Positions 1 to 10,913 of a stretch of DNA of 15,701 bases are shown piece after piece. Source of the DNA: Candidatus Fervidifonticultor secundus. GTDB taxonomy: Bacteria; Sysuimicrobiota; Sysuimicrobiia; Sysuimicrobiales; Humicultoraceae. The notes beneath the pieces are model-generated. The model searched no databases, was not told where the DNA came from, and saw nothing but the letters and a program-made list of their open reading frames with translations. Within the stretch, counting starts at the first letter, position 1; every line of letters begins with the position of its first letter. A program made the position numbers and the translations under genes. The stretch spans positions 1-15,701 of the forward strand of contig JAVKIP010000035.1 of assembly GCA_031459385.1 (NCBI GenBank). Reading direction: 5' to 3'.

Positions 1-1118
1 GTGGCGGCCCGGGCCTGGCGGCGCCGGTAGCGCAGTTCCCAGGCCAACGCGGCGGACAGTACGACCACCGTCGCCAGCAGAACCAGGGGCGGCTCGCGCT
101 CGATGACCGCGATGTTGAACATGATGAGCACGGTGAAGATGAGCCAGTAGGCCAGCGCCAGGACCCCCACCGTGAAGAAGAACGGACGCTCGGCGGGCCG
201 GCGGCCCCTGCTCCGGTCGAGGAAGGGCACCAGCATCCCGAAGCCGATCAGCAGGCCGGGCCCCAGGCCCGCCCACAGCGGCGGGGTGTACTTCACGTAC
301 TGGTAGAGCCCCAGGAAGTACCAGTCGGAGAGGATGGGCAGCGGCGTACGATTCGGATCGGCCCTGCGGCCGAGCTCAGCGGGGAGCACGTAACTGGTGA
401 ACACCAGCATCCCCAAGAACAGCAGGATCGGGAACCACGACATGTTGAGCCGCCGCCGGCGCGTCCGATAGTAGAAGAGTTCGGCAACGATGAGCAGCAC
501 CAGCGAGATGCCGAAGTGCAGGGCGTAGAACCGGGTGAGGGTCGCGGCGCCCACGGCCGGGCCGCCCAGGAACAGGAAGGCGATCATGGAACCCAGCTGG
601 AATCGCTCACCGATCACCGGGATCTTGGCGGTCAGCTCGTCGAAGTAGACGGGCACGGTCAGCACCGTCTTCGCCGCCCAGAACGCACGCTGATTCCAGA
701 TGAGCAGATAACCCGTGATGCCCGAGATCATGGCCAGGATCAGGCCGGCGAACGCCCACATCCAGCTCAGCTCCCCAGGCTTCTTGTACTCCCCCAGGAA
801 GTACATGCGGTAGATGCGCAAGATGATGGTGACGATGACGCCGTCCGCGGCGTACTTGTGCATGCCGCGCCACAGCCACCCCAGGGGGATCTCGTGCTGG
901 ATGCGCAGGATCGAGTTGTACGCGCCGGTAGGAGTGGGTTCGTACCAGAACATGAGGATGATACCGCTGGCCACGGTCACGATCCAGAAGAAGTACAGCA
1001 TGGGGCCCAACAGGTAGAGGGGGTTCGCCTGCTGACCGACCAGCGTCTCGTCGAAGAGATCGAGCTTGGCGCGACGGTCGCGGTACCACTCCTGTAGGCT
1101 GTCCAGGATGGCGGCCAT
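1..1118 (-). CDS. qcrB: Cytochrome b subunit of a Rieske/cytochrome bc complex, unsplit with about 8 TM helices, atypical (lacks haem bH ligands); 3' end lies outside the window
   Basis: Not in the ORF track because there is no stop in the window. Hand translation from ATG 1118 is open to base 1: MAAILDSLQEWY...SGIILMFWYEPTPTGAYNSILRIQHEIPLGWLWRGMHKYAADG...YKKPGELSW...ITGYLLIWNQRAFWA...IPVIG...GGPAVGAATLTRFYALH...ADPNRTPLPILSDWYFLGLY...LVPFLDR...ERPF. These are cytochrome b/b6 and subunit IV motifs in the expected order, directly downstream of a Rieske gene. Confidence 0.95.
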   Translation of the reverse strand, partial: MAAILDSLQEWYRDRRAKLDLFDETLVGQQANPLYLLGPMLYFFWIVTVASGIILMFWYEPTPTGAYNSILRIQHEIPLGWLWRGMHKYAADGVIVTIILRIYRMYFLGEYKKPGELSWMWAFAGLILAMISGITGYLLIWNQRAFWAAKTVLTVPVYFDELTAKIPVIGERFQLGSMIAFLFLGGPAVGAATLTRFYALHFGISLVLLIVAELFYYRTRRRRLNMSWFPILLFLGMLVFTSYVLPAELGRRADPNRTPLPILSDWYFLGLYQYVKYTPPLWAGLGPGLLIGFGMLVPFLDRSRGRRPAERPFFFTVGVLALAYWLIFTVLIMFNIAVIEREPPLVLLATVVVLSAALAWELRYRRRQARAA

Positions 1119-1161: not shown

Positions 1162-1824
1162 TCAGGCGATCCCGCCCGGCTCGATGCGTTCGATCACGAT
1201 CCGATTGCCCTCGATCTTGTGGTAGAACGTCCGCGGCGGCCGGGGTGCGGGGCCCGAGAGCACCCGCCCTGGCTCCGTGGGATCGGCCGGATCGTAGATG
1301 CTCAGATGACACGGGCACGCCATGAGAGCGTGCTGTCGGTCCCTGGGCGGCACGTATCCGCCATACCCCGAGGTGACCTCTCGCCACTCGGGGACGAAAT
1401 TGTAGATGCACCCCAGGTGAGGGCAGATGCGGGAGAACGCGATGATGTCGCTCTCCATGGACGCCGGCGTCTCGCCCAGGGCCCGCAGCCAGCCCCACGG
1501 GAGCTGGATCTTGTTGGGCAGCCTGATGACGACGCCGGGGACCGCCTGGGTCTTGAAGCCGTCGGGGGTGTACTGCGGATATTTCTGGGTGAACACGAAG
1601 TACTTGAAGTCCCAGGGCTTCGCCAGTTCTGCCAGCGTGGCGGCCACGACTGGCTCGCCGGTCGCCGCGTCCTGCGCGGTGGGCACCAGGATCGCGAACG
1701 GATCCACGTTGGGCTTCAAGTACCGCAACAGCGGCGAGGCGAACGCCACCAGGCCTCCGATCAGGGGGACCTCGGCCACCAGTCTCAGGAAGCGGCGGCG
1801 GCTAATCCCTGGATCCTGTGCCAT
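1162..1824 (-). CDS. qcrA: Rieske [2Fe-2S] subunit of cytochrome bc complex
   Basis: Tat motif SRRRFLR followed by a TM helix; box 1 CPHLGC (1408-1425); box 2 CPCHLSIYD (1291-1317); GPAPRP loop; GGAGG RBS just upstream of the ATG. Confidence 0.96.
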   Translation of the reverse strand: MAQDPGISRRRFLRLVAEVPLIGGLVAFASPLLRYLKPNVDPFAILVPTAQDAATGEPVVAATLAELAKPWDFKYFVFTQKYPQYTPDGFKTQAVPGVVIRLPNKIQLPWGWLRALGETPASMESDIIAFSRICPHLGCIYNFVPEWREVTSGYGGYVPPRDRQHALMACPCHLSIYDPADPTEPGRVLSGPAPRPPRTFYHKIEGNRIVIERIEPGGIA

Positions 1825-1837
1825 GCGCCTCCACCTG

Positions 1838-2740
1838 CTAGTGCCCGCGGGCCGGTGCGTAGTCGTAGAGAAACGTCCAGATGTAGTCCACCAGCGCCCA
1901 CACCTCGTCCTCTCGCAACTGGCCCTGATAGCCGGGCATGAGCCCGCGGCCGGTCCAGATGCGCTGGTAGAGCTCCGAGGGCTTCCGCTGCAGCATCAGG
2001 TTCACGTCCGTGAAGATCCCGGGGCCTTCCCCGCGACCCCACCCCCACAGGCGTGCCGCCATCTCCGCGCTCAGCGCGCCGCCCCGGCCGTCCCCGGCCG
2101 CACCGTGACAGGCGGCACAGGTCGCGGTCCGCCCGCCGCCGATCCCAAGGGCGCGGTTCTGGTAGATGTCGCGGCCAAGCGCCACAGAAGGCGGCGTGGC
2201 CGAGAACGTCTTGACGTAGAACAGGACGTCCCAGATCTGCGCGTCCGTCAGCGTGGGAAAGCCGCGGTTGGCGCCGTATGCCGGCCTCGGGCCAAACGCC
2301 GGCATCGCCGTGTGCGGCCGGCCCAGCTTGATGGTCTCGAACAGGGCGAACGGGGCATTCAGGCGCTGCTGCACCAGGTTGTGGAAGTTGGCGGGGCGGG
2401 ACGGCAGGTCTTCGCCCCGCAGCTTCAGGCCGAACATTCCGAAGAAGTCGGTCATGGGGTTCTTGTGCGGCGCGACCAGGCCTGCGGCGGCCGGCCCATC
2501 ACCGAACCCCTCGTTGCCGTGACACGGCCAGCACACCCGCTCGTAGATCCCCCGGCCTCGCGCAGCCGACGGCCGGGGATTGGTGGGCGCCAGGGGAGGC
2601 GCAGGCGGCGCCTCCACCAGGCCGGCACCCGCGGTCGCAGCGGTGCCGGTCCCCACGGTTGGCTGGCAACCGCCGGCGACCGTCGCGAGCAACAGCAAGA
2701 TGACGAGCGTGCGGCGCGACTGTGGCGGCAACAGGGGCAT
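1838..2740 (-). CDS. Dihaem class I cytochrome c, probable lipoprotein
   Basis: Two CxxCH motifs (CWPCH 2519-2533, CAACH 2105-2119), each followed by a Met-Pro distal ligand motif (TAMPAF, GLMPGY); two internally similar domains; signal peptide ending in lipobox-like VAGG-C. An alternative in-frame ATG at 2791 overlaps the upstream stop. Confidence 0.9.
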   Translation of the reverse strand: MPLLPPQSRRTLVILLLLATVAGGCQPTVGTGTAATAGAGLVEAPPAPPLAPTNPRPSAARGRGIYERVCWPCHGNEGFGDGPAAAGLVAPHKNPMTDFFGMFGLKLRGEDLPSRPANFHNLVQQRLNAPFALFETIKLGRPHTAMPAFGPRPAYGANRGFPTLTDAQIWDVLFYVKTFSATPPSVALGRDIYQNRALGIGGGRTATCAACHGAAGDGRGGALSAEMAARLWGWGRGEGPGIFTDVNLMLQRKPSELYQRIWTGRGLMPGYQGQLREDEVWALVDYIWTFLYDYAPARGH

Positions 2741-2790
2741 CGCAATTCCCCGTTGAGTTCTGCGCCTGACAACCAACTCCTCCCCCAGCA

Positions 2791-3693
2791 TCAGGCCTCG
2801 GACGACATCCTGGCGATCGCCAGCATCAGACCCACGATCAAGAGGGCGGCCAGCGTCCCGGCGGCCACCGGGGCCAGCCACAACCGCGCCGACGGCACGC
2901 CGGTAATGCTGAGGCGCAAGTCACCCGGCGGTACCGCCCGGGCTGTTGCGCGAGCGTAGACCTGCCCCTCGCTGGTGACCGGTGGCAGGAGCTGGAGCGC
3001 CGGTCCGCGGGCCTCCCCGGGCGCCCGAACGAAGATCTCGATGCGGTCGGCGCCGATCGCCAGGCGACGGTCGAGGGACACCTCGCCCGATCCGCCCACG
3101 GCGTACGCGTACGCCACCTGATGGGCGCCAGGCCTCACGATCAACCGATCGGTGATGGCACCGCCGTCGGCGCGCGGGCGGTGAAACCCGTCACCGAAGG
3201 TGATGTAGCGCGCGCCTCTGGGCAGCGGGAAGGCCACGTCGCCGAGAAATGTCCGGGTCGTCGGGTTCTGGAGGTGGACGACCTCGGAGACGCGCAGGTA
3301 GCCGCGCCAGACCTCCACCGCCACCCCGAGCAGTGCCATGCGCAGCGGAACCTGTGGGGACACATCGTACACCAACACGGTGACCTCGACCGGCCCGCCG
3401 CTCACCACCGCGTGGGTCGCGTACGAGACGCCCTGATGCTGGACGGTGACCAAGTAGCGACCATCGGCCAGACCGCTGAACCCGAATCGCCCGGCGGCAT
3501 CGGTGCGGGCGAGCGCGACGGGCTCCGGCCCCGCGGTGCCGATGAAGACGAGCTGGACCGGCGCCCGCGCGACCACCGAGCCCGCGGTGATGTTGCGCAC
3601 GACACCCCGGACGGCGCTTCCCGCCGACGGTGCCGCCGCCGCGGAAGCCGCGAACAGGCCCACGGCCGCGCAGAGCAGTGCCGCGCCTCTCAT
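2791..3693 (-). CDS. Exported protein with carboxypeptidase-regulatory-like (prealbumin/Ig-like) beta domain and C-terminal membrane anchor
   Basis: ATG 3693 overlaps the upstream TGA (ATGA); signal peptide MRGAALLCAAVGLFAASAAA; pattern ARTDAAGRFGFSGLADGRYLVTV typical of CarboxypepD_reg-like domains; C-terminal TM LAPVAAGTLAALLIVGLMLAIA. The ORF-track extension to 4302 overlaps other genes. Confidence 0.8.
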   Translation of the reverse strand: MRGAALLCAAVGLFAASAAAAPSAGSAVRGVVRNITAGSVVARAPVQLVFIGTAGPEPVALARTDAAGRFGFSGLADGRYLVTVQHQGVSYATHAVVSGGPVEVTVLVYDVSPQVPLRMALLGVAVEVWRGYLRVSEVVHLQNPTTRTFLGDVAFPLPRGARYITFGDGFHRPRADGGAITDRLIVRPGAHQVAYAYAVGGSGEVSLDRRLAIGADRIEIFVRAPGEARGPALQLLPPVTSEGQVYARATARAVPPGDLRLSITGVPSARLWLAPVAAGTLAALLIVGLMLAIARMSSEA

Positions 3694-3953
3694 GGGCCCG
3701 GCGGCGGTATCTTCCGGACGATCGCCGCCAGCTCGCCCTCCAGCGCCGCGCGCTGGGCGCGGTAGTCCTCGTCGGAGAGCTTGCCGGTGCCCCAATCGAG
3801 CTCGAGGTCGCGGAGCGAGCGCAGCGCCGCCGCCTGCGCGGCTTCCAGCGCATCGTGAGGGTCCGGGGAGGGCACCGTGGTCCGCCGGAACGCCGGCGCC
3901 AGCAGGTATGCCGCGGCGGACGCAACGACCAGGAAGAAGACGGCTTCGATCAC
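3690..3953 (-). CDS. Stand-alone CcmI/CycH N-terminal-like membrane protein (87 aa)
   Basis: GTG 3953 overlaps the ccmF stop (GTGA); N-terminal TM followed by LRSLRDLELDWGTGKLSDEDYRAQRAALEGEL, resembling the CcmI cytoplasmic helical segment; position directly after ccmF. Confidence 0.7.
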   Translation of the reverse strand: MIEAVFFLVVASAAAYLLAPAFRRTTVPSPDPHDALEAAQAAALRSLRDLELDWGTGKLSDEDYRAQRAALEGELAAIVRKIPPPGP

Positions 3954-5950
3954 GGCGCGCCGGGAACGCCCTCCGCGGACAGTGGGGCAGACCGCGGGGA
4001 GATCGGTGCCGGCGCCACCCGCCTCCACGTTTCGGGCAGCACGGCGAGGACCACACCCAGCACGATGATGAGTCCCCCGGCCCACAGCCATGAGACCAAC
4101 GGGTGCACCAGCACGCGGATCTGCGCGCGGCCGCCGGTGTCCCACTCCGAGAGGATGATGTACAGATCTTCACGCGGCGAAGACCGGATCGCCACATGGT
4201 GCATCGGCTGCTCTTGCGTGCGATAGAAGAGCCGTTGGGGGGTGAACGTCCCCGCAAACCGCCCGCCGGCCCAGACACGCACCGTGGCCTGGGTGATGTC
4301 AATCCCGGGCTGCTCTGCGGCCGACAGGCCTCCGAACTCCACGGTGTAGCGGCCCACGGCGAACCGCTCGCCGGGGCGCAGCCAGGCCGCAGACTGGGTC
4401 GCGAACGCGCTGCTCCCCGCGATACCCACGAGCATCACCAGGATGCCGAAGTGCACCGTGTAACCGCCGTAGCGCCGGCGGTTCCTCGCCACGAGCCGGA
4501 CCAGGGCGACGGCGGGGCCTTCGCCCCGCCGGACGCGAAGCCTGGTCCCGCGCGCGGCCTCCAGCACGATGGTGGCCAGCACGAAGGCGGAGGCGGCGAA
4601 GACCAGCAGCGCCCCAGGCGAGCGGATCCCGCCCACGGCGAGCACTACTGCCAGTAGCAAGCCAGCAGCCGCCGGGAACGCGAAATTCCGAGCGAGCTGC
4701 TCCGGCGTCGCCCTGCGCCACGGCAGCAGGGGCCCCACGCCCATCAGCAACAGGATCCCCACCGCGATCGGGATCATCACCGTGTTGAAATACGGAGGGC
4801 CGACGTTGATCTTTACGCCGCGGAACGCCTCGGTGATCGCCGGAAAGATGGTGCCGACAAACACCACCACGGTGGCTGCCACGAACAGCAGGTTGTTGGC
4901 CAGGAAGGCCGTCTCGCGGCTGACCACGGACTCCACCGTGCCCCGGCTGCGGAGCAGGTCCCATCGCCAGGCCAGCAGGGCGAACGACCCCACCAGCAGC
5001 AGGGCCAGGAACGCCAGGAAGAAGTACCCGATCGGCGACTGCGCAAAGGCGTGAATGGAGGACAGCACCCCGCTGCGCACCAGGAACGTGCCGAAGATGG
5101 TCAGCCCGAACGTGATGAGCACCAGCGCCACGTTCCAGGTCAAAAGCATCCCCCGCCGCTCCTGGATCTGGATCGAATGGATCCACGCGGTCGCGGTCAG
5201 CCAGGGCATGAATGCCGCGTTCTCCACCGGATCCCAGGCCCAGTACCCGCCCCAGCCCAGCACCACGTACGACCACTTGGCGCCGAACAGCAGGCCCAGG
5301 GTCAGGAACATCCAGGCCACGATCACCCATCGCCGCGAGAGCACGATCCAAGTGTCGTCGAGCCGGCCGGTCACCATGGCCGCCACCACCAGCGCAAAGG
5401 GGACGCTCATGCCGACGAAGCCCAGATACAGCATCGGGGGGTGCGCGGCCATCCAGGGGTTCCGCAGCAGCGGATTGAGCCCCTGACCGTCCGGCGGGGG
5501 TGGCACCAGCGGCGAGAACGGGTTGCTCGCCGTCGCCAGCAGGAGCGAGAAGAACGCGGCGATCACGAACAGGGTGGCCGCCGCAGGCGCCTGAAAGTCC
5601 GGATGGGCGCGCAGGCTGAAGACGCCCACCACCATGTAGAGCGCCAGGATCAGCGCCCACAGGAGCAGCGCGCCGTCGTGGCCGCCCCAGAACGCGGTGA
5701 CGGTGTAGAACGTCGATTGGAGGGTCTCGCTGGCGCCAGCCACGAACCGGACTGAGAAGTCCCTGGCGAGGAAGGCAGCGAACAGCGCTGCCGAGGCCAG
5801 CCCGATCAGCAGGGCCCACACCACCACGGCGCGGCGCCCGGCCGCCAGGAGCCCGCCGTCCCGCCACTTGATGCCCAGCACGGTGACCGCCAGCCCGTAG
5901 AGCGCCACCACCACCGCCGACTGGAGGGCGAACCGGCCGATCTCACCCAC
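3950..5950 (-). CDS. ccmF: Cytochrome c biogenesis haem lyase CcmF
   Basis: WWD motif WGGYWAWDPVEN, QGLNPLL, HPPMLYLG, conserved His in WIHS, SIHAF and TVHFG; 666 aa multi-TM protein; GGAGG RBS before the GTG. Confidence 0.97.
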   Translation of the reverse strand: MGEIGRFALQSAVVVALYGLAVTVLGIKWRDGGLLAAGRRAVVVWALLIGLASAALFAAFLARDFSVRFVAGASETLQSTFYTVTAFWGGHDGALLLWALILALYMVVGVFSLRAHPDFQAPAAATLFVIAAFFSLLLATASNPFSPLVPPPPDGQGLNPLLRNPWMAAHPPMLYLGFVGMSVPFALVVAAMVTGRLDDTWIVLSRRWVIVAWMFLTLGLLFGAKWSYVVLGWGGYWAWDPVENAAFMPWLTATAWIHSIQIQERRGMLLTWNVALVLITFGLTIFGTFLVRSGVLSSIHAFAQSPIGYFFLAFLALLLVGSFALLAWRWDLLRSRGTVESVVSRETAFLANNLLFVAATVVVFVGTIFPAITEAFRGVKINVGPPYFNTVMIPIAVGILLLMGVGPLLPWRRATPEQLARNFAFPAAAGLLLAVVLAVGGIRSPGALLVFAASAFVLATIVLEAARGTRLRVRRGEGPAVALVRLVARNRRRYGGYTVHFGILVMLVGIAGSSAFATQSAAWLRPGERFAVGRYTVEFGGLSAAEQPGIDITQATVRVWAGGRFAGTFTPQRLFYRTQEQPMHHVAIRSSPREDLYIILSEWDTGGRAQIRVLVHPLVSWLWAGGLIIVLGVVLAVLPETWRRVAPAPISPRSAPLSAEGVPGAP

Positions 5951-6102: not shown

Positions 6103-6486
6103 TCAGTGGTCGGGCGCCTTGTATTCCGGGGGGTGAGTCGAGATGACCTGCGCGGCCTGGATGACTCCGGCGCCGTCCACGCGGCCTTCGACGAGGACCT
6201 CCCGGCCTTCGGCAAACAGGTCGGGCAGCGGGCCGCCATAGTGCACCTCGTACGGCGTGAGGCCGTCGGTGATCGCGAAGCGAATCAGGCCCTCGGTCTT
6301 GACCACCGATCCGGGTACCACGCGGCCGGCCATGCGGATCTTGTTGTGGCGCAGCTCGGGCTTGGACTTGAACTCGGTCGGGGTCAGGTAGTAGACCATG
6401 GACGACCGCACGCCCTGGTAGGCCACGAAGCCCAGAGCCGCCACGATGATGGCCGAGGCGACCACCAGCTTGCGCTTGGTGCTCAC
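6103..6486 (-). CDS. ccmE: Haem chaperone CcmE
   Basis: N-terminal TM, YYLTPTE, IRMAGRVVPGSV, YGGPLPDLFAEGREVLVEG, and C-terminal HxxxY haem motif (HPPEY). Confidence 0.95.
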   Translation of the reverse strand: MSTKRKLVVASAIIVAALGFVAYQGVRSSMVYYLTPTEFKSKPELRHNKIRMAGRVVPGSVVKTEGLIRFAITDGLTPYEVHYGGPLPDLFAEGREVLVEGRVDGAGVIQAAQVISTHPPEYKAPDH

Positions 6487-6615: not shown

Positions 6616-7290
6616 CTAGGCCTCTTCCAACGCTTCGATGAGCCGGGCCAGCGCCTGCTCCTGGCGCACGCGGATCGCGAGCAGCGCCGCGAACACCAGC
6701 ACGAATGCCAGGACGTTGACCAGCAGGGGCAGCAACATGCTGGCAGGCAGCGCTGGTCCCTCTGGCCTGAACACCGTCGGCTGGGGGTGCAGCGTGCGCA
6801 GCAGGATCGCCGACCAGTGGATCAGCGGGATGTCCAGCACGCCGATGATGCCGATGACCGCTGCGGCGCGCGCACCGCGGACACCCGGCGCCCATGCGCG
6901 GACGGCCAAGTAGCCCATGTAGATGAACCAGAGGATCAGCGTCGTCGTCAACCGCGCGTCCCAGGTCCACCACGTCCCCCAGACCGGCTTGCCCCAGATC
7001 GCGCCGGAGACCAGCGTCATGGAGATGAACAGGACCGCCAGCTCCGCGGCGCCGTGCGCCAGTCGGTCCCACCGGTCGTCGCGCTTCCACAGGAAGAGGA
7101 CGCTGCCCACGAACACCACGGCCAGGGCCCCATAAGCCGTGATCACGCTCGGCACGTGGATGTACATGATACGCTGGGGGATGCCCTGGATGACCTCGGT
7201 CGGCGCTGCCAGCAGCGCCCATGCCACACCCACCAGCATGAGCAACGTTCCGGCCACCAACAGGGGACGCGTCACGGGGAAAACGGTCAC
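6616..7290 (-). CDS. ccmC: Haem exporter/chaperone-loading protein CcmC
   Basis: RIMYIHVP, WWD motif WGKPVWGTWWTWDARLT, IHWS and RTLHP. Confidence 0.97.
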   Translation of the reverse strand: MTVFPVTRPLLVAGTLLMLVGVAWALLAAPTEVIQGIPQRIMYIHVPSVITAYGALAVVFVGSVLFLWKRDDRWDRLAHGAAELAVLFISMTLVSGAIWGKPVWGTWWTWDARLTTTLILWFIYMGYLAVRAWAPGVRGARAAAVIGIIGVLDIPLIHWSAILLRTLHPQPTVFRPEGPALPASMLLPLLVNVLAFVLVFAALLAIRVRQEQALARLIEALEEA

Positions 7291-7934
7291 TCCTCTAAGA
7301 CGAATTCGAAGAGCAGCCAGCTCGCGGTTAGCACGAGTATATCAAAGGCCCCCATCAACTGCAATTGGGCGCGGACGGCGGAAACCGGCGCCCCGTCTAG
7401 GATTGCGGCGGTGGCGCTGACCGCGGCGATGAGCAGGGGGAGCGTCACGGGCAACATGAGGAGGGGCAGCATGGCTTCGCGCAACCGTGTCTGCACCAAC
7501 AGGCCGCCAAACAGCGTGCCCGCGGCCGCGAGCCCCACACCGCCCAGGACGACGGGCAGCACCAGGGGCCACAGGCGGGTCCAGGCCGCCTCGGTGAAGA
7601 GCGCACCGAACGCCGGCAGCGAGATCACCTGCACGGCCACCAGCAGTAACCAGTTGGCCAGCGTCTTGGCCAGGAAGATGACGCCGCCGTCGACGGGTGC
7701 CAGGCGCAGCGCGGTCGCGTGATCGCGCTCCAGGGCCAGCGTGCGCGTGAATCCCAACGTGGCCGCGAACGCATAGGTGACCCACATGGCGGCCGGCGCG
7801 CTGGCCCGGTCCGAGCGCGCGGCGCCCAGCACCACCACCAGCAGGAACGCCAGTAGACCCACCGCCGTGGTGATCTCGCGGGTCCGCCACTCCAGGCGCA
7901 GGTCCTTGGCGACGAGGAGCACGAGGGTTCTCAC
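7287..7934 (-). CDS. ccmB: Haem exporter permease CcmB
   Basis: KDLRLEWR N-terminus, about 6 TM helices, LPLLMLPVTLPLLI motif; lies between ccmA and ccmC with 4-nt overlaps. Confidence 0.92.
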   Translation of the reverse strand: MRTLVLLVAKDLRLEWRTREITTAVGLLAFLLVVVLGAARSDRASAPAAMWVTYAFAATLGFTRTLALERDHATALRLAPVDGGVIFLAKTLANWLLLVAVQVISLPAFGALFTEAAWTRLWPLVLPVVLGGVGLAAAGTLFGGLLVQTRLREAMLPLLMLPVTLPLLIAAVSATAAILDGAPVSAVRAQLQLMGAFDILVLTASWLLFEFVLEE

Positions 7935-8632
7935 CAGCGGCTCCCGTGGAACCAGGCGGCCAGGCGCGCGTCATCCACGCTGTTGGCCGGCATGATCTCG
8001 GTGAGACGGCCGCCAAGCAACACGGTGATGCTGGCGTGCAGGTCCCGGGCCTCGGCCAGATCGTGGGTCGCAAACACGATGGTGCGGCCGCGTTGCGCTT
8101 CTTCCCGCAGCACCGCCGTCAGCCGGCCGCTGGCGGTCACGTCCAGACCGGTGTAGGGCTCATCGAGGATGAGCACGTCCGGATTGTGCAGCACCGCCCG
8201 CGCCAGATTCACCTGCTGTCGCTGGCCGCGCGAGAGGACCCTCACCCGGCGGTGCGCCAGTGGCTCCAGCGCCGCCTGCGCCAGCACGCCGGCCACGCGA
8301 TCGGCGCCCAGGCCGTAGAGGCCGGCGAAGAAGTGCAGGTTCTCGGTCACCGTGAGGTTGTCGTAGAGGAGCGACTCGTGGGCCACCAGCCCGATGCGGC
8401 GACGGATCTGGGGGTGAGGCGAGGCTGGACGGCCGAAGAGGACCACAGACCCCCGCGTGGGCGGCGACAGCGTGGCGATCACGCGCAACAGGGTCGTCTT
8501 GCCCGACCCGTTGGCCCCCAGCACCGCCAGGGTCAGCCCGGCGGGTACGCTGAGATCCGCCCCGCGGAGCACCGGTCGGTGGTCGTAGGACTTGGTGACC
8601 CCGCGCACCTCGATGGCCGCAACTCCACTCAT
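7931..8632 (-). CDS. ccmA: Haem exporter ABC ATPase CcmA
   Basis: Walker A GANGSGKT, LTVTENL, signature LSRGQRQQ, Walker B LILDEP, H-loop ATHD; first gene of the ccm cluster. Confidence 0.93.
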   Translation of the reverse strand: MSGVAAIEVRGVTKSYDHRPVLRGADLSVPAGLTLAVLGANGSGKTTLLRVIATLSPPTRGSVVLFGRPASPHPQIRRRIGLVAHESLLYDNLTVTENLHFFAGLYGLGADRVAGVLAQAALEPLAHRRVRVLSRGQRQQVNLARAVLHNPDVLILDEPYTGLDVTASGRLTAVLREEAQRGRTIVFATHDLAEARDLHASITVLLGGRLTEIMPANSVDDARLAAWFHGSRW

Positions 8633-10230
8633 CTGGCTGAGGGATCCTGCGTCGAGGCTGCGTCATCGGAGACCAGCAGGTCCACCACGGCCTCGACGTC
8701 TTCCACGCGGTGCAGGACGAAGGGGTACCCACGGTGGGCGGCGACATCGGCGTCGGCCTGCAGGTGATTCAGCCGGTCGAGCGCAGCCTGGACCTCGGCC
8801 ACCTGGTCGGCCACCGCGACCCGCAGGATGGCATTCAGCTCCCTGATGCGCCGGGTCGCGGCCCGTCTCTCGCGCCGGGTCAGCGCGGCGGCCTGCTCCA
8901 GCTGGCGGATGAGCGCCCACTTCTCCTCGACCAGGACCCGGTGTGCGCCCTCGGGCACGAGGAACCGTTCGGGATTGTGCTGCAGGTCCAGCAGACGCCG
9001 CGCCAGGCGCTGGCGCTCCAGGACGACGGAGCCTCCCGAGGCGAACGGCAGGAAGAGGGTGGCAGTGGCGGCCGCGTAGGCCGGCGGGGCGATCCCGAAG
9101 AACGCCCGGACGACTGCGTCGGTGGCGCGATCGTAGCGGGCGCCGCCCACGCCGTGGATGAAGAGGTCGCAGATTGCCAGGCGCACGAACGCCGTGAGGG
9201 TCAGCGCCCGGGGCCGCAGCGGCATGGCGGCAAACGCCGGCTCGTCGGGGTCCTCGGGCAGTCGGCCCACAACCCGGTGCCCGGCGGCGATGGCTCGGCT
9301 GGCGGGCTCGACGAACACCGGCCAGCGCTGGCCGTCGGCGAGGTACCAGAACGGCACCTCGACCCGGTCCGGCGCGATCGTCAGGTCGGGAAACGGCTGG
9401 GCCGCTGTTCGGATCCCGTAGTGCTCGCGATACGCGTCCAGGCAGGCGTTGTGGATCTCGGCGAAGCGCACCGCGTCCCGCATGATGGCCAGCGCGAACC
9501 TCCGGAACGCCGGCATGCCCGACATGACGGACACCGGCAGGTCCACGTAGGCCCGCGGGCCCTCCAGCCGCCGGCGCAGGGCCGTGATGGCACCGGCCAG
9601 TCCTCCCGGGGATCTTGGGGGCCACAGGGCCCGGGCTCGTCCCCAGGCCTCGGCGATCGGGCCGCTGCCGAGCGTGGCGAGGTAAGCGTCCACGGACGTG
9701 GCCAGGCGGCGCCAGTCGTCCTCGGTGGGAGCCGGGAGCAGCTCGAACGGCACCGTCGGCCCTCCGCGGGCCAGCGGTACCCGCGTCCGGCGCAGCCGCC
9801 CGTCGTCGTGGGGGACTTCCACCGCGATCTCGTCGGCAGCGTCGCTGTCCACGATGATGGCCAGACCCATCCCGTCTTGAGGCACGACGCGTGCCAGCGC
9901 CAGGTACTTGATCCAGATGCCGGGGTGCACGAACACCGGCTGGTGCCCGGTGGCCAGCAGCACCCCGGTTCGCCCGGACTCCACGGCGATCCCCAGCCGC
10001 CGGGTGTAGTCCGCGGCCCGGGCCAGCGCTTCCACCCGCGCGGTGCGGCGCAGCACCCCCAGCGGGACGCCAGCGATCTCCACCGCAGCCCCATCGAGGG
10101 CCTCCCGGTTCTGCCGGGCGCGCTCCAGCCACTCCCTCACGGGCGGGCGAGCCACGGCCGCCGGCGATGCCTGCGGGATCTCGAGCCCCACCTCCGGCCA
10201 CACCCCGTGGTCGGCGATTCCACCCGACAT
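8629..10230 (-). CDS. Uncharacterised 533-aa protein, probable distant BshC-like ligase
   Basis: ATG 10230 overlaps the deacetylase stop (TGATG). Motif order ATGHQP..HPGIWIK / IIVDSD / LRPRAL / DLFIHGVGGARYD / C-terminal coiled coil parallels BshC (TGQQ / EDHD / LRP / YxGGPGE / coiled coil). The CDS is solid; the family assignment is my recognition, not a search result. Confidence 0.6.
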   Translation of the reverse strand: MSGGIADHGVWPEVGLEIPQASPAAVARPPVREWLERARQNREALDGAAVEIAGVPLGVLRRTARVEALARAADYTRRLGIAVESGRTGVLLATGHQPVFVHPGIWIKYLALARVVPQDGMGLAIIVDSDAADEIAVEVPHDDGRLRRTRVPLARGGPTVPFELLPAPTEDDWRRLATSVDAYLATLGSGPIAEAWGRARALWPPRSPGGLAGAITALRRRLEGPRAYVDLPVSVMSGMPAFRRFALAIMRDAVRFAEIHNACLDAYREHYGIRTAAQPFPDLTIAPDRVEVPFWYLADGQRWPVFVEPASRAIAAGHRVVGRLPEDPDEPAFAAMPLRPRALTLTAFVRLAICDLFIHGVGGARYDRATDAVVRAFFGIAPPAYAAATATLFLPFASGGSVVLERQRLARRLLDLQHNPERFLVPEGAHRVLVEEKWALIRQLEQAAALTRRERRAATRRIRELNAILRVAVADQVAEVQAALDRLNHLQADADVAAHRGYPFVLHRVEDVEAVVDLLVSDDAASTQDPSAR

Positions 10231-10913
10231 CAGATCAGGCCATCCCACCGGACCACGCCGATCTCCTCCCGGCAGATGAAGGCTTCGCCATACCGCCGGT
10301 GGATGAGGCGGCCCCAGTAGCCGTTGGTCTCGCGGATCGTCTCGATGATCCAGCCGGTGCCTCGCGCTTCGCCGAACTGGGACTCGTAGGCGGCGATCGA
10401 GGCCAGCTTGGCGTCCATGTAGTCCGAGATGTCCACGATGAATGAGGGCTTGACGTGCAGCCGGTAGTGGGTGCTGAAGAAGTGGTACACGCGCCGCGGA
10501 TAGTGCGGCTCCCCCTTCATCGCGGTCCGGGTGAGTTTGGCGGTGAAGCGCGCTGCCTCACACAGCGCGCAGGCGGCCACGTGGTCCGGATGGGCGTCCG
10601 ACCAGTATGGGACGAACATGGCGTCCGGCCGCACCTCCCGGATGACCTCAGCCACCTGCACCCGTGCCTCGATGGTGTCCTGGAGATAGCGGTTGGGCAG
10701 CGCTAGAGTGATCCGGCGCTGCACACCCAGCAGGCGCGCGGCGGCGGCGGCCTCGGCGGCGCGGCGTTGGGGCGTGCCCAGGGGTGTGGGTTCGCCATCG
10801 GTGAGGTCGCAAAGCACGACGTCGTGGCCCTGGGCCAGCAGCCAGCACACCGTGCCGCCCATGGCGATCTCCACGTCGTCGGGGTGCGGGCCTATGGCGA
10901 GGAGACGGGCCAC
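10230..10913 (-). CDS. bshB1: PIG-L/LmbE family de-N-acetylase, BshB1-like
   Basis: GTG 10913 with GAGGTG RBS; Zn motifs GPHPDDVE and DAHPDH; DLTDGE; PSFIVDIS..KLASIAAYESQF; YGEAF. The substrate may differ from GlcNAc-malate. Confidence 0.82.
   Translation of the reverse strand: MARLLAIGPHPDDVEIAMGGTVCWLLAQGHDVVLCDLTDGEPTPLGTPQRRAAEAAAAARLLGVQRRITLALPNRYLQDTIEARVQVAEVIREVRPDAMFVPYWSDAHPDHVAACALCEAARFTAKLTRTAMKGEPHYPRRVYHFFSTHYRLHVKPSFIVDISDYMDAKLASIAAYESQFGEARGTGWIIETIRETNGYWGRLIHRRYGEAFICREEIGVVRWDGLI

Follow-up and report, generated by a model that had tools for sequence, protein, structure and literature searches.

In canonical Rieske/cytochrome b complexes, which are homodimers, each cytochrome b carries four invariant histidines, the first of helix B and the first of helix D ligating haem bL (bp) and the second of each helix ligating haem bH (bn). 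It has been taken as a rule that these four residues do not vary and that the Q cycle requires both haems in every monomer. In engineered Rhodobacter bc1, according to the portion of the published text covered here (Ekiert et al., 2014; PMC4152375), a complex with bH knocked out in one half (H212N) and the quinol oxidation (Qo) site knocked out in the other allowed photoheterotrophic growth via a bL-bL bridge; symmetric bH knock-outs did not. The protein described here, cytochrome b A, has two of the four histidines and belongs to a family that breaks the rule. It is encoded at one end of a 15,701-base stretch of DNA (the window; 69% G+C), which is one entire contig of the 59-contig assembly of Candidatus Fervidifonticultor secundus (completeness 97.6%). 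A probably belongs to an undescribed complex III made of two unlike cytochrome b subunits, the second being a co-encoded four-histidine cytochrome b, labelled B. A family of this kind would be dropped from the survey of Kao and Hunte (2014; PMC4122944) because, as stated in the portion of its text covered, sequences missing any of the four histidines were excluded before analysis.

The gene for A lies on the minus strand at window positions 3..1118 and covers the first 372 of 386 residues; the C-terminal 14 are encoded past the window start, and the full-length protein was read from a near-identical contig (L004:1622-2782). Conservation was scored in two sets, namely the query plus its 120 best database matches (121 aligned sequences, 70-91% identical, mostly labelled as Armatimonadota metagenome-assembled genomes, MAGs) and 80 genome loci, of which 77 or 78 cover the position in question. 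A scored 102.7 bits against PF00033 (cut-off 27.2), 71.6 bits against PF13631 (above its cut-off) and 28.0 bits against PF00032 (cut-off 20.7), and in a phmmer search it matched 57 distinct PDB chains with cytochrome b6 at the top (E = 2.3e-32). A structure predicted with AlphaFold2, a moderate model with a mean predicted local distance difference test score (pLDDT) of 73.5, contained eight long helices, and Foldseek assigned it the eight-helix cytochrome b fold, with template modelling (TM) scores of 0.56-0.63 against bc1 cytochromes b. It stayed below the NCBIfam cut-offs for cytochrome b6 of the b6f type (NF002990; 128.2 vs 325 bits) and for the ExtP b-type cytochrome (NF040969; 125.2 vs 290 bits), and the 372 visible residues hold no cysteine for haem cn, as is also true of 106 of the 121 aligned sequences, which are cysteine-free. 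The PF00033 and PF00032 domains and an adjacent Rieske gene are present and the four conserved histidines are not; A is thus a divergent member of the cytochrome b family that has these domains and the Rieske neighbour but lacks the four-histidine feature, and is not a b6.

The Qo-site motif of A, S264-D265-W266-Y267 (window positions 318..329, minus strand), is of the PxWY type with proline replaced by serine and D-W-Y kept, and SDWY is present in the A-type proteins of 77/77 loci. The best-conserved blocks of the protein are those that form the Qo site, with mean column identities of 0.94 for residues 261-280 and 0.87 for residues 141-160; because the elements of the Qo site are better conserved than the rest of A, the protein is read as carrying a working quinol site and not a relic. 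An SxWF variant of the motif is described for another cytochrome b subfamily in the portion of PMC5600118 covered. Near the N-terminus, a 'DLFDE' motif (residues 20-24, window 1047-1061) was observed in which D20, F22, D23 and E24 are invariant in 14 diverse A members, and F22, D23 and E24 are at least 99% conserved across the 80 loci; the motif lies on the cytoplasmic side, close to the expected place of the quinone reduction (Qi) site and bH, and could belong to a charge network or be a docking site for the iron-sulfur (FeS) domain.

Histidine occurs in the visible part of A only at positions 75, 87 and 201, and the loop residue His75 is histidine in just 98 of the 121 aligned sequences. The other two, both encoded by CAC on the minus strand, are the kept bL ligands: H87 in helix B (858..860), present in 121/121 homologues and 77/77 loci, and H201 in helix D (516..518), present in 121/121 homologues and 78/78 loci. 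The bH histidine at helix B +14 is replaced by R101 (CGC, 816..818, minus strand), which is arginine in all 121 aligned sequences and, among 77 loci, arginine in 75 and lysine in 2. At helix D +14/+15 the bH histidine is replaced by F215 (TTC, 474-476) and Y216 (TAC, 471-473), together 471..476 on the minus strand; these two positions are F/L/Y and F/Y/V, never histidine, among the 121 aligned A homologues, and histidine is found at 215 in the A-type proteins of 3 of 77 loci. An invariant buried glutamate, E213 (GAA, 480..482, minus strand), occupies helix D +12 in 121/121 homologues and 77/77 loci; lying two residues ahead of the lost-histidine position, it need not face R101. The register of these positions follows from the phmmer alignment to b6, in which H87 corresponds to the first helix-B histidine, R101 to the second ('ilHvfrvy' vs 'ilRiyrmy') and H201 to the first helix-D histidine, and from a gapless BLASTP alignment of A with B (30% identical), which sets R101 on H98, F215 on H199 and E213 on W197. 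The original prediction, made from the letters of the window, had reported only three histidines, no cysteine, and Arg, Phe and Tyr at the bH positions, and the translation and both alignments bear this out. It had also counted the alanine of WMWA (Ala122) among the changes in the bH pocket; this residue is no family trait, being A in 42, G in 42, S in 34 and F in 3 of the 121 sequences.

Searching 1.84 billion representatives with a profile yielded 7317 relatives of cytochrome b. Among the best 150 of these, the 15 top scores (430-666 bits) all belonged to the H-R/K-H-E type, 20 full-length rows were of the H-R/K-H type, 19 of them with the invariant glutamate, and 113 rows had histidine at all three unambiguous positions, canonical sequences beginning at about 207 bits. 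A minority of family members combined a histidine at helix D +14 (E-x-H) with the helix-B arginine (loci L027, L065 and L068; representatives P0124, P0128, P0130, P0131 and P0136), a pattern that may reflect which of the two bH ligands was lost first.

The ratio of nonsynonymous to synonymous substitution (dN/dS, Nei-Gojobori) between A and ten relatives was 0.09-0.23, and among relatives of A position 101 is encoded by six different arginine codons plus AAG. The original prediction had proposed asking whether R101, E213 and the histidine loss are conserved across a clade under purifying selection; the invariance of both residues in 121/121 sequences, conservation far beyond chance, together with these ratios shows that they are. 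Over 2739 nucleotides without gaps, the window is 99.2% identical to L004, a contig of a Candidatus Fervidifonticultor quintus MAG (Ca. Sysuimicrobiota). Contigs from three DNA runs, possibly of the source sample and hence not independent, and from one RNA-library run showed zero differences at 471-482, 516-518, 816-818 and 858-860; the RNA-library contigs with the A gene and the same codons hint at expression, with the proviso that an RNA library can contain DNA. The loss of both bH ligands in A is real, ancient and under purifying selection.

The genes that follow A were read from L004, where the order is a 91-residue hydrophobic open reading frame (ORF), B (385 residues), an MvhD/FlpD protein (154 residues), a polyprenyl synthetase, a histidine kinase and a response regulator. 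B consists of an N-terminal PF00033 domain (95.4 bits) and a C-terminal ferredoxin domain with two [4Fe-4S] clusters (Fer4 families). Its four histidines (H84, H98, H185 and H199) and eight cysteines do not vary among aligned members spanning all clades (13/13), and 66/73 rows of a larger set have them as well; the remaining 7 rows, we infer, represent A, taken by the script where a locus stops short of B. Hydropathy and a poor structure model (pLDDT 62.2, used for the helix count only) gave six helices (A-F) followed by a low-confidence ferredoxin part, and given six helices the ferredoxin domain should be cytoplasmic. The FlpD protein matched PF02662 at 98.8 bits (cut-off 22.3), and each of its four cysteines (19, 48, 73 and 78) is kept in 62-63 of 63 sequences. 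No FAD/NAD(P) (flavin or nicotinamide adenine dinucleotide) oxidoreductase subunit was found in the operon, either in L004 or in the scanned Melainabacteria loci; in one of the latter (L067), an ORF of the FAD_binding_2 family lies downstream of the operon on the opposite strand.

The core of this operon is constant. All loci with 2.6 kb or more of downstream sequence have B after A (57/57), and all with 3.3 kb or more have both B and FlpD (56/56). Where 800 bases or more are available upstream, a Rieske gene stands ahead of A in 72/73 loci; only L013 lacks it. The A loci come from Sysuimicrobiota/CSP1-3 and, at 42-49% identity, from Fimbriimonadaceae, other Armatimonadota, an Anaerolineae MAG and Melainabacteria/Vampirovibrionia; for the clusters of 10 representatives, Armatimonadota was the sole name found and no wider taxonomy appeared. 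While the core stays the same, the flanks vary, with cytochrome c maturation (ccm) genes in Sysuimicrobiota and ccoN-ccoO/P in Melainabacteria, where the operon reads ccoN, ccoO/P, cytochrome c, Rieske, A, small ORF, B and FlpD. In four Melainabacteria loci (L067, L073, L079 and L068), the module stands directly behind ccoN and a ccoO/ccoP-like fusion. Additionally, among the 50 loci that extend far enough, 39 have a polyprenyl synthetase (L004:4864-5994 and its counterparts) within 3.5 kb after FlpD, which may point to a connection with the synthesis of the quinone side chain.

The source genome, at 97.6% completeness, holds just three PF00033 matches, A, its paralogue A' and one B, so that no canonical cytochrome b is there to substitute; the second, canonical qcrB that had been proposed as something to look for is absent. 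A second complete copy of the operon is present in the same genome (contig C2, ~50.9-55.7 kb; L001, L003, L084) in the order cytochrome c, Rieske, A', small ORF, B' and FlpD, where A' and B' denote the second-copy versions; A' is 84% identical to A and likewise lacks the bH ligands (R/E), and B' is 79% identical to the B of L004. In two Melainabacteria genomes, A and B are the only cytochromes b and stand beside genes for a cbb3-type oxidase. The source genome also has three NrfD-family genes, and for that reason the A/B complex is not claimed as its sole quinol:cytochrome c route. Two NrfD-family genes on contig C14 (~7.4-13.4 kb) flank a 663-residue frame with Fer4 and FlpD-like matches (HdrA/MvhD-like), a set that is possibly a redox module of the cytoplasm such as FlpD proteins typically work with. 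PF02621 (futalosine pathway) had no match in the source genome, at its stated completeness.

The two bL haems of a cytochrome b dimer face each other at the dimer interface, which is the sole exit for an electron from bL. Because the chain in A stops at bL and its exit would run only via that interface, the reading we lean towards, with modest confidence, is that A is one half of a heteromeric Rieske/cytochrome b complex, the half that oxidises quinol and holds bL only, and passes electrons from bL to bL into B. The engineered bc1 of Ekiert et al. speaks for the feasibility of such a route. A and B would pair as the two cytochrome b monomers do in bc1 and b6f, and the Qo site of A would oxidise quinol, with one electron going through the Rieske cluster to cytochrome c and on to an oxidase and the other from bL of A to bL and then bH of B. 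From bH of B, the electron could either reduce quinone at a Qi-like site of B or continue through the two [4Fe-4S] clusters to the FlpD cluster and a cytoplasmic partner. The empty bH pocket of A would be filled or braced by R101, E213 and other invariant charged residues. The original prediction had listed, as the last of three options, bL-bL transfer in a heterodimer with a canonical cytochrome b; the heterodimer is the part now favoured by the unbroken A-B-FlpD order, whereas the partner is not a canonical full-length cytochrome b. A further step, in which the low-potential electron of bifurcation in such a heterodimeric complex III is exchanged with cytoplasmic ferredoxin-level carriers instead of, or besides, recycling at Qi, by way of the two [4Fe-4S] clusters and FlpD, is tentative and on balance doubtful.

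Several points weigh against the pairing of A with B. B retains helices E and F and an ef-loop aspartate ('LDVFY'/'DWFY'), and might therefore have its own quinol site and work alone. There is a single Rieske gene per operon. Three of the five other genomes checked also carry a canonical cytochrome b, so that the pair is not always the sole one, and the transfer of an electron to carriers of ferredoxin level, against the membrane potential, is estimated to be energetically tight. In a tree of 70 N-terminal domains (14 A, 13 B, 4 outliers and 39 others, taken as every third remaining representative of at least 200 residues), A forms one clade (Shimodaira-Hasegawa-like approximate likelihood ratio test, SH-aLRT, 99), and B sits on a long stem amid canonical sequences; A and B are not sister paralogues, and a recent duplication giving rise to both was dropped as an explanation. 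A homologue search with B returned only close relatives (252 at E <= 1e-10).

In the strongest alternative, a homodimer of A with the Rieske protein and cytochrome c forms a mono-haem complex without a Q cycle, both electrons leave via the Rieske protein, bL serves as a transient store or a structural haem, and B with FlpD is a separate quinone-linked module sharing the operon. The Qo site of A is complete, and A has a C-terminal domain as well as a Rieske protein and cytochrome c of its own. B combines a di-haem b domain with FeS domains, which is the architecture of membrane anchors that work alone and connect FeS proteins of the cytoplasm with the quinone pool; the placement of A and B as non-sister lineages and the ef-loop aspartate of B fit as well. 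An A-type gene also occurs alone: for the protein encoded at L013:9274-10386 (83% identical, 407 residues, 11 histidines), 9.2 kb of upstream sequence contain no Rieske or cytochrome c match and the 1056 nucleotides downstream contain no B, and the protein may be a stand-alone paralogue. In a homodimer, however, bL would be a dead end, and symmetric bH knock-outs of bc1 fail photoheterotrophically in the portion of PMC4152375 covered. Both bL ligands of A are invariant, suggesting that bL hands electrons onward, and an A-B-FlpD linkage that is unbroken in 56/56 loci across phyla despite changing flanks exceeds what co-regulation would need. A mono-haem complex, which was the headline of the original prediction, does not fit the full operon with its four-histidine B, and is considered unlikely.

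In canonical cytochromes b, helix-A glycines make room for two haems, and arginine is not a haem ligand. Both facts bear on a second alternative, in which A still binds haem bH, or another cofactor, through unconventional ligands. In its favour, the glycines in question, G38 and G52, are invariant in the 14-sequence alignment (across the 80 loci, only G52 reaches 99% conservation), and a histidine at helix D +14 is kept in 3/77 loci and in 5/20 full-length family representatives. However, conserved His, Met, Lys, Tyr or Cys residues are absent from the N-side half of helices B and D, Arg or Lys occupies position 101, and positions 215/216 are mostly F/Y/L/V/I/M, which makes this alternative improbable. 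An artefact or a decaying pseudogene, for which the single-base distance of R101 (CGC) and Y216 (TAC) from CAC would speak, is refuted by the identical residues in 121/121 homologues, the low dN/dS, the second assembly and the concordance of DNA and RNA contigs, including at 816-818 and 471-476; the original prediction had likewise argued against sequencing error.

Several further genes lie upstream of A in the window, all on the minus strand. The Rieske [2Fe-2S] protein (1162..1824) has a twin-arginine signal and the cluster boxes CPHLGC and CPCHLSIYD separated by a 30-residue spacer; its match to PF00355 (20.1 bits) is just under the cut-off of 20.3 and its NCBIfam Rieske matches are weak, but both cluster boxes are present in 74/74 members of its family and the twin-arginine signal in 69/74. 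The spacing between CxHxGC and CxCH is 25-30 residues in 73/74 members, and 18 in the Aquifex chain 6kls_A as counted from the printed alignment. A 100-base skip at 1182-1283 in one RNA contig, at a depth of 2.8, was not accepted as real. Next to the Rieske gene, a di-haem c-type cytochrome with two CxxCH motifs (1838..2881; PF00034 and PF13442, two stretches each) shows weak similarity to CcoP and QcrC and is presumed to be the electron acceptor of the Rieske protein.

Beyond these lie the genes of cytochrome c maturation system I, also on the minus strand: ccmF (3950..5950; PF16327 at 240 bits, and PF01578), ccmE (6103-6486; PF03100), ccmC (6616-7290; PF01578), ccmB (7287-7934; PF03379) and ccmA (7931-8632; PF00005). 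Two frames stand between ccmF and the cytochrome c gene on the same strand. One (2791-4302) has a carboxypeptidase-regulatory-like domain at 32.0 bits against a cut-off of 32.3 and, as listed, overlaps ccmF, so that its true start is probably later; the other, of 151 residues (3690-4145), has no family. A 539-residue ORF directly upstream of ccmA (8629-10248, minus strand) is without a Pfam or NCBIfam match.

The rule of four histidines is broken here by a whole family under strong selection, in at least four bacterial lineages, and in some genomes A-B is the only Rieske/cytochrome b complex and adjoins terminal oxidase genes. If A and B pair, they would be a natural counterpart of the engineered cross-dimer that showed bL-bL transfer between monomers, and the disputed physiological role of that transfer would become directly testable. 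The fused ferredoxin domain and FlpD would add an electrical connection, so far uncharacterised, from the site of quinol oxidation to iron-sulfur carriers of the cytoplasm, which would matter for chemolithoautotrophy in Sysuimicrobiota and for the question of how the b6f complex arose. Were exchange with ferredoxin-level carriers true, it would bear on how b6f came to meet ferredoxin in cyclic electron flow, because A-B is the only Rieske/cytochrome b complex in the checked genomes of Melainabacteria, the sister lineage of Cyanobacteria.

No description of the A family was found in the literature covered, which did not extend to figures or subscription journals, including Figures 2 and S1 of PMC5600118 (ligands per clade). 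The main text of the Sysuimicrobiota paper (PMC11604079) does not contain 'cytochrome b', 'complex III', 'Rieske' or 'bc1', and in the portion covered of a paper on Melainabacteria (PMC6349859), petB/petC are annotated beside oxidase genes and the ligands are not mentioned. Two clade-wide losses of bH/bn histidines have been described, both with function or cause unexplained in the portions of text covered: in Pyrobaculum cytochrome b, where only the second bH ligand is missing (Kao and Hunte, 2014; PMC4122944), and in cyanobacterial subfamily K, a short cytochrome b with Glu/Gln in helix 2 (Dibrova et al., 2017; PMC5600118). Unlike the A-B operon, neither is accompanied, in the same portions of text, by mention of a co-encoded second cytochrome b with an FeS tail.

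Compared with canonical bc1, b6f and Firmicute-type bc complexes, the operon shares a Rieske protein, a c-type cytochrome, an eight-helix cytochrome b with bL ligands and a Qo loop resembling the PxWY type, and differs in the SDWY motif, the absence of a cysteine for haem cn and the co-encoded unlike cytochrome b with an FeS tail and FlpD. The anammox complexes Kustd1480-1485 and Kuste4569-4574 (PMC12954380) likewise have a Rieske/cytochrome b core to which a chain of FeS clusters is attached on its cytoplasmic side and, in the portion of that paper covered, are proposed to reduce a cytoplasmic acceptor by quinol bifurcation; however, the authors' model is a homodimer with bP, bN and cN haems whose chain ends in an FAD/NAD(P) reductase, whereas the operon described here has no flavoprotein, one cytochrome b without bH and the FeS domain fused to the other. 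The engineered Rhodobacter bc1 of Ekiert et al. resembles the proposed A-B complex in having one half without bH and in functioning via a bL-bL bridge. That construct, as far as the covered text of PMC4152375 describes it, is laboratory-made from near-identical subunits with a normal Qi site, whereas the natural pair is 30% identical and has a two-haem partner with FeS clusters.

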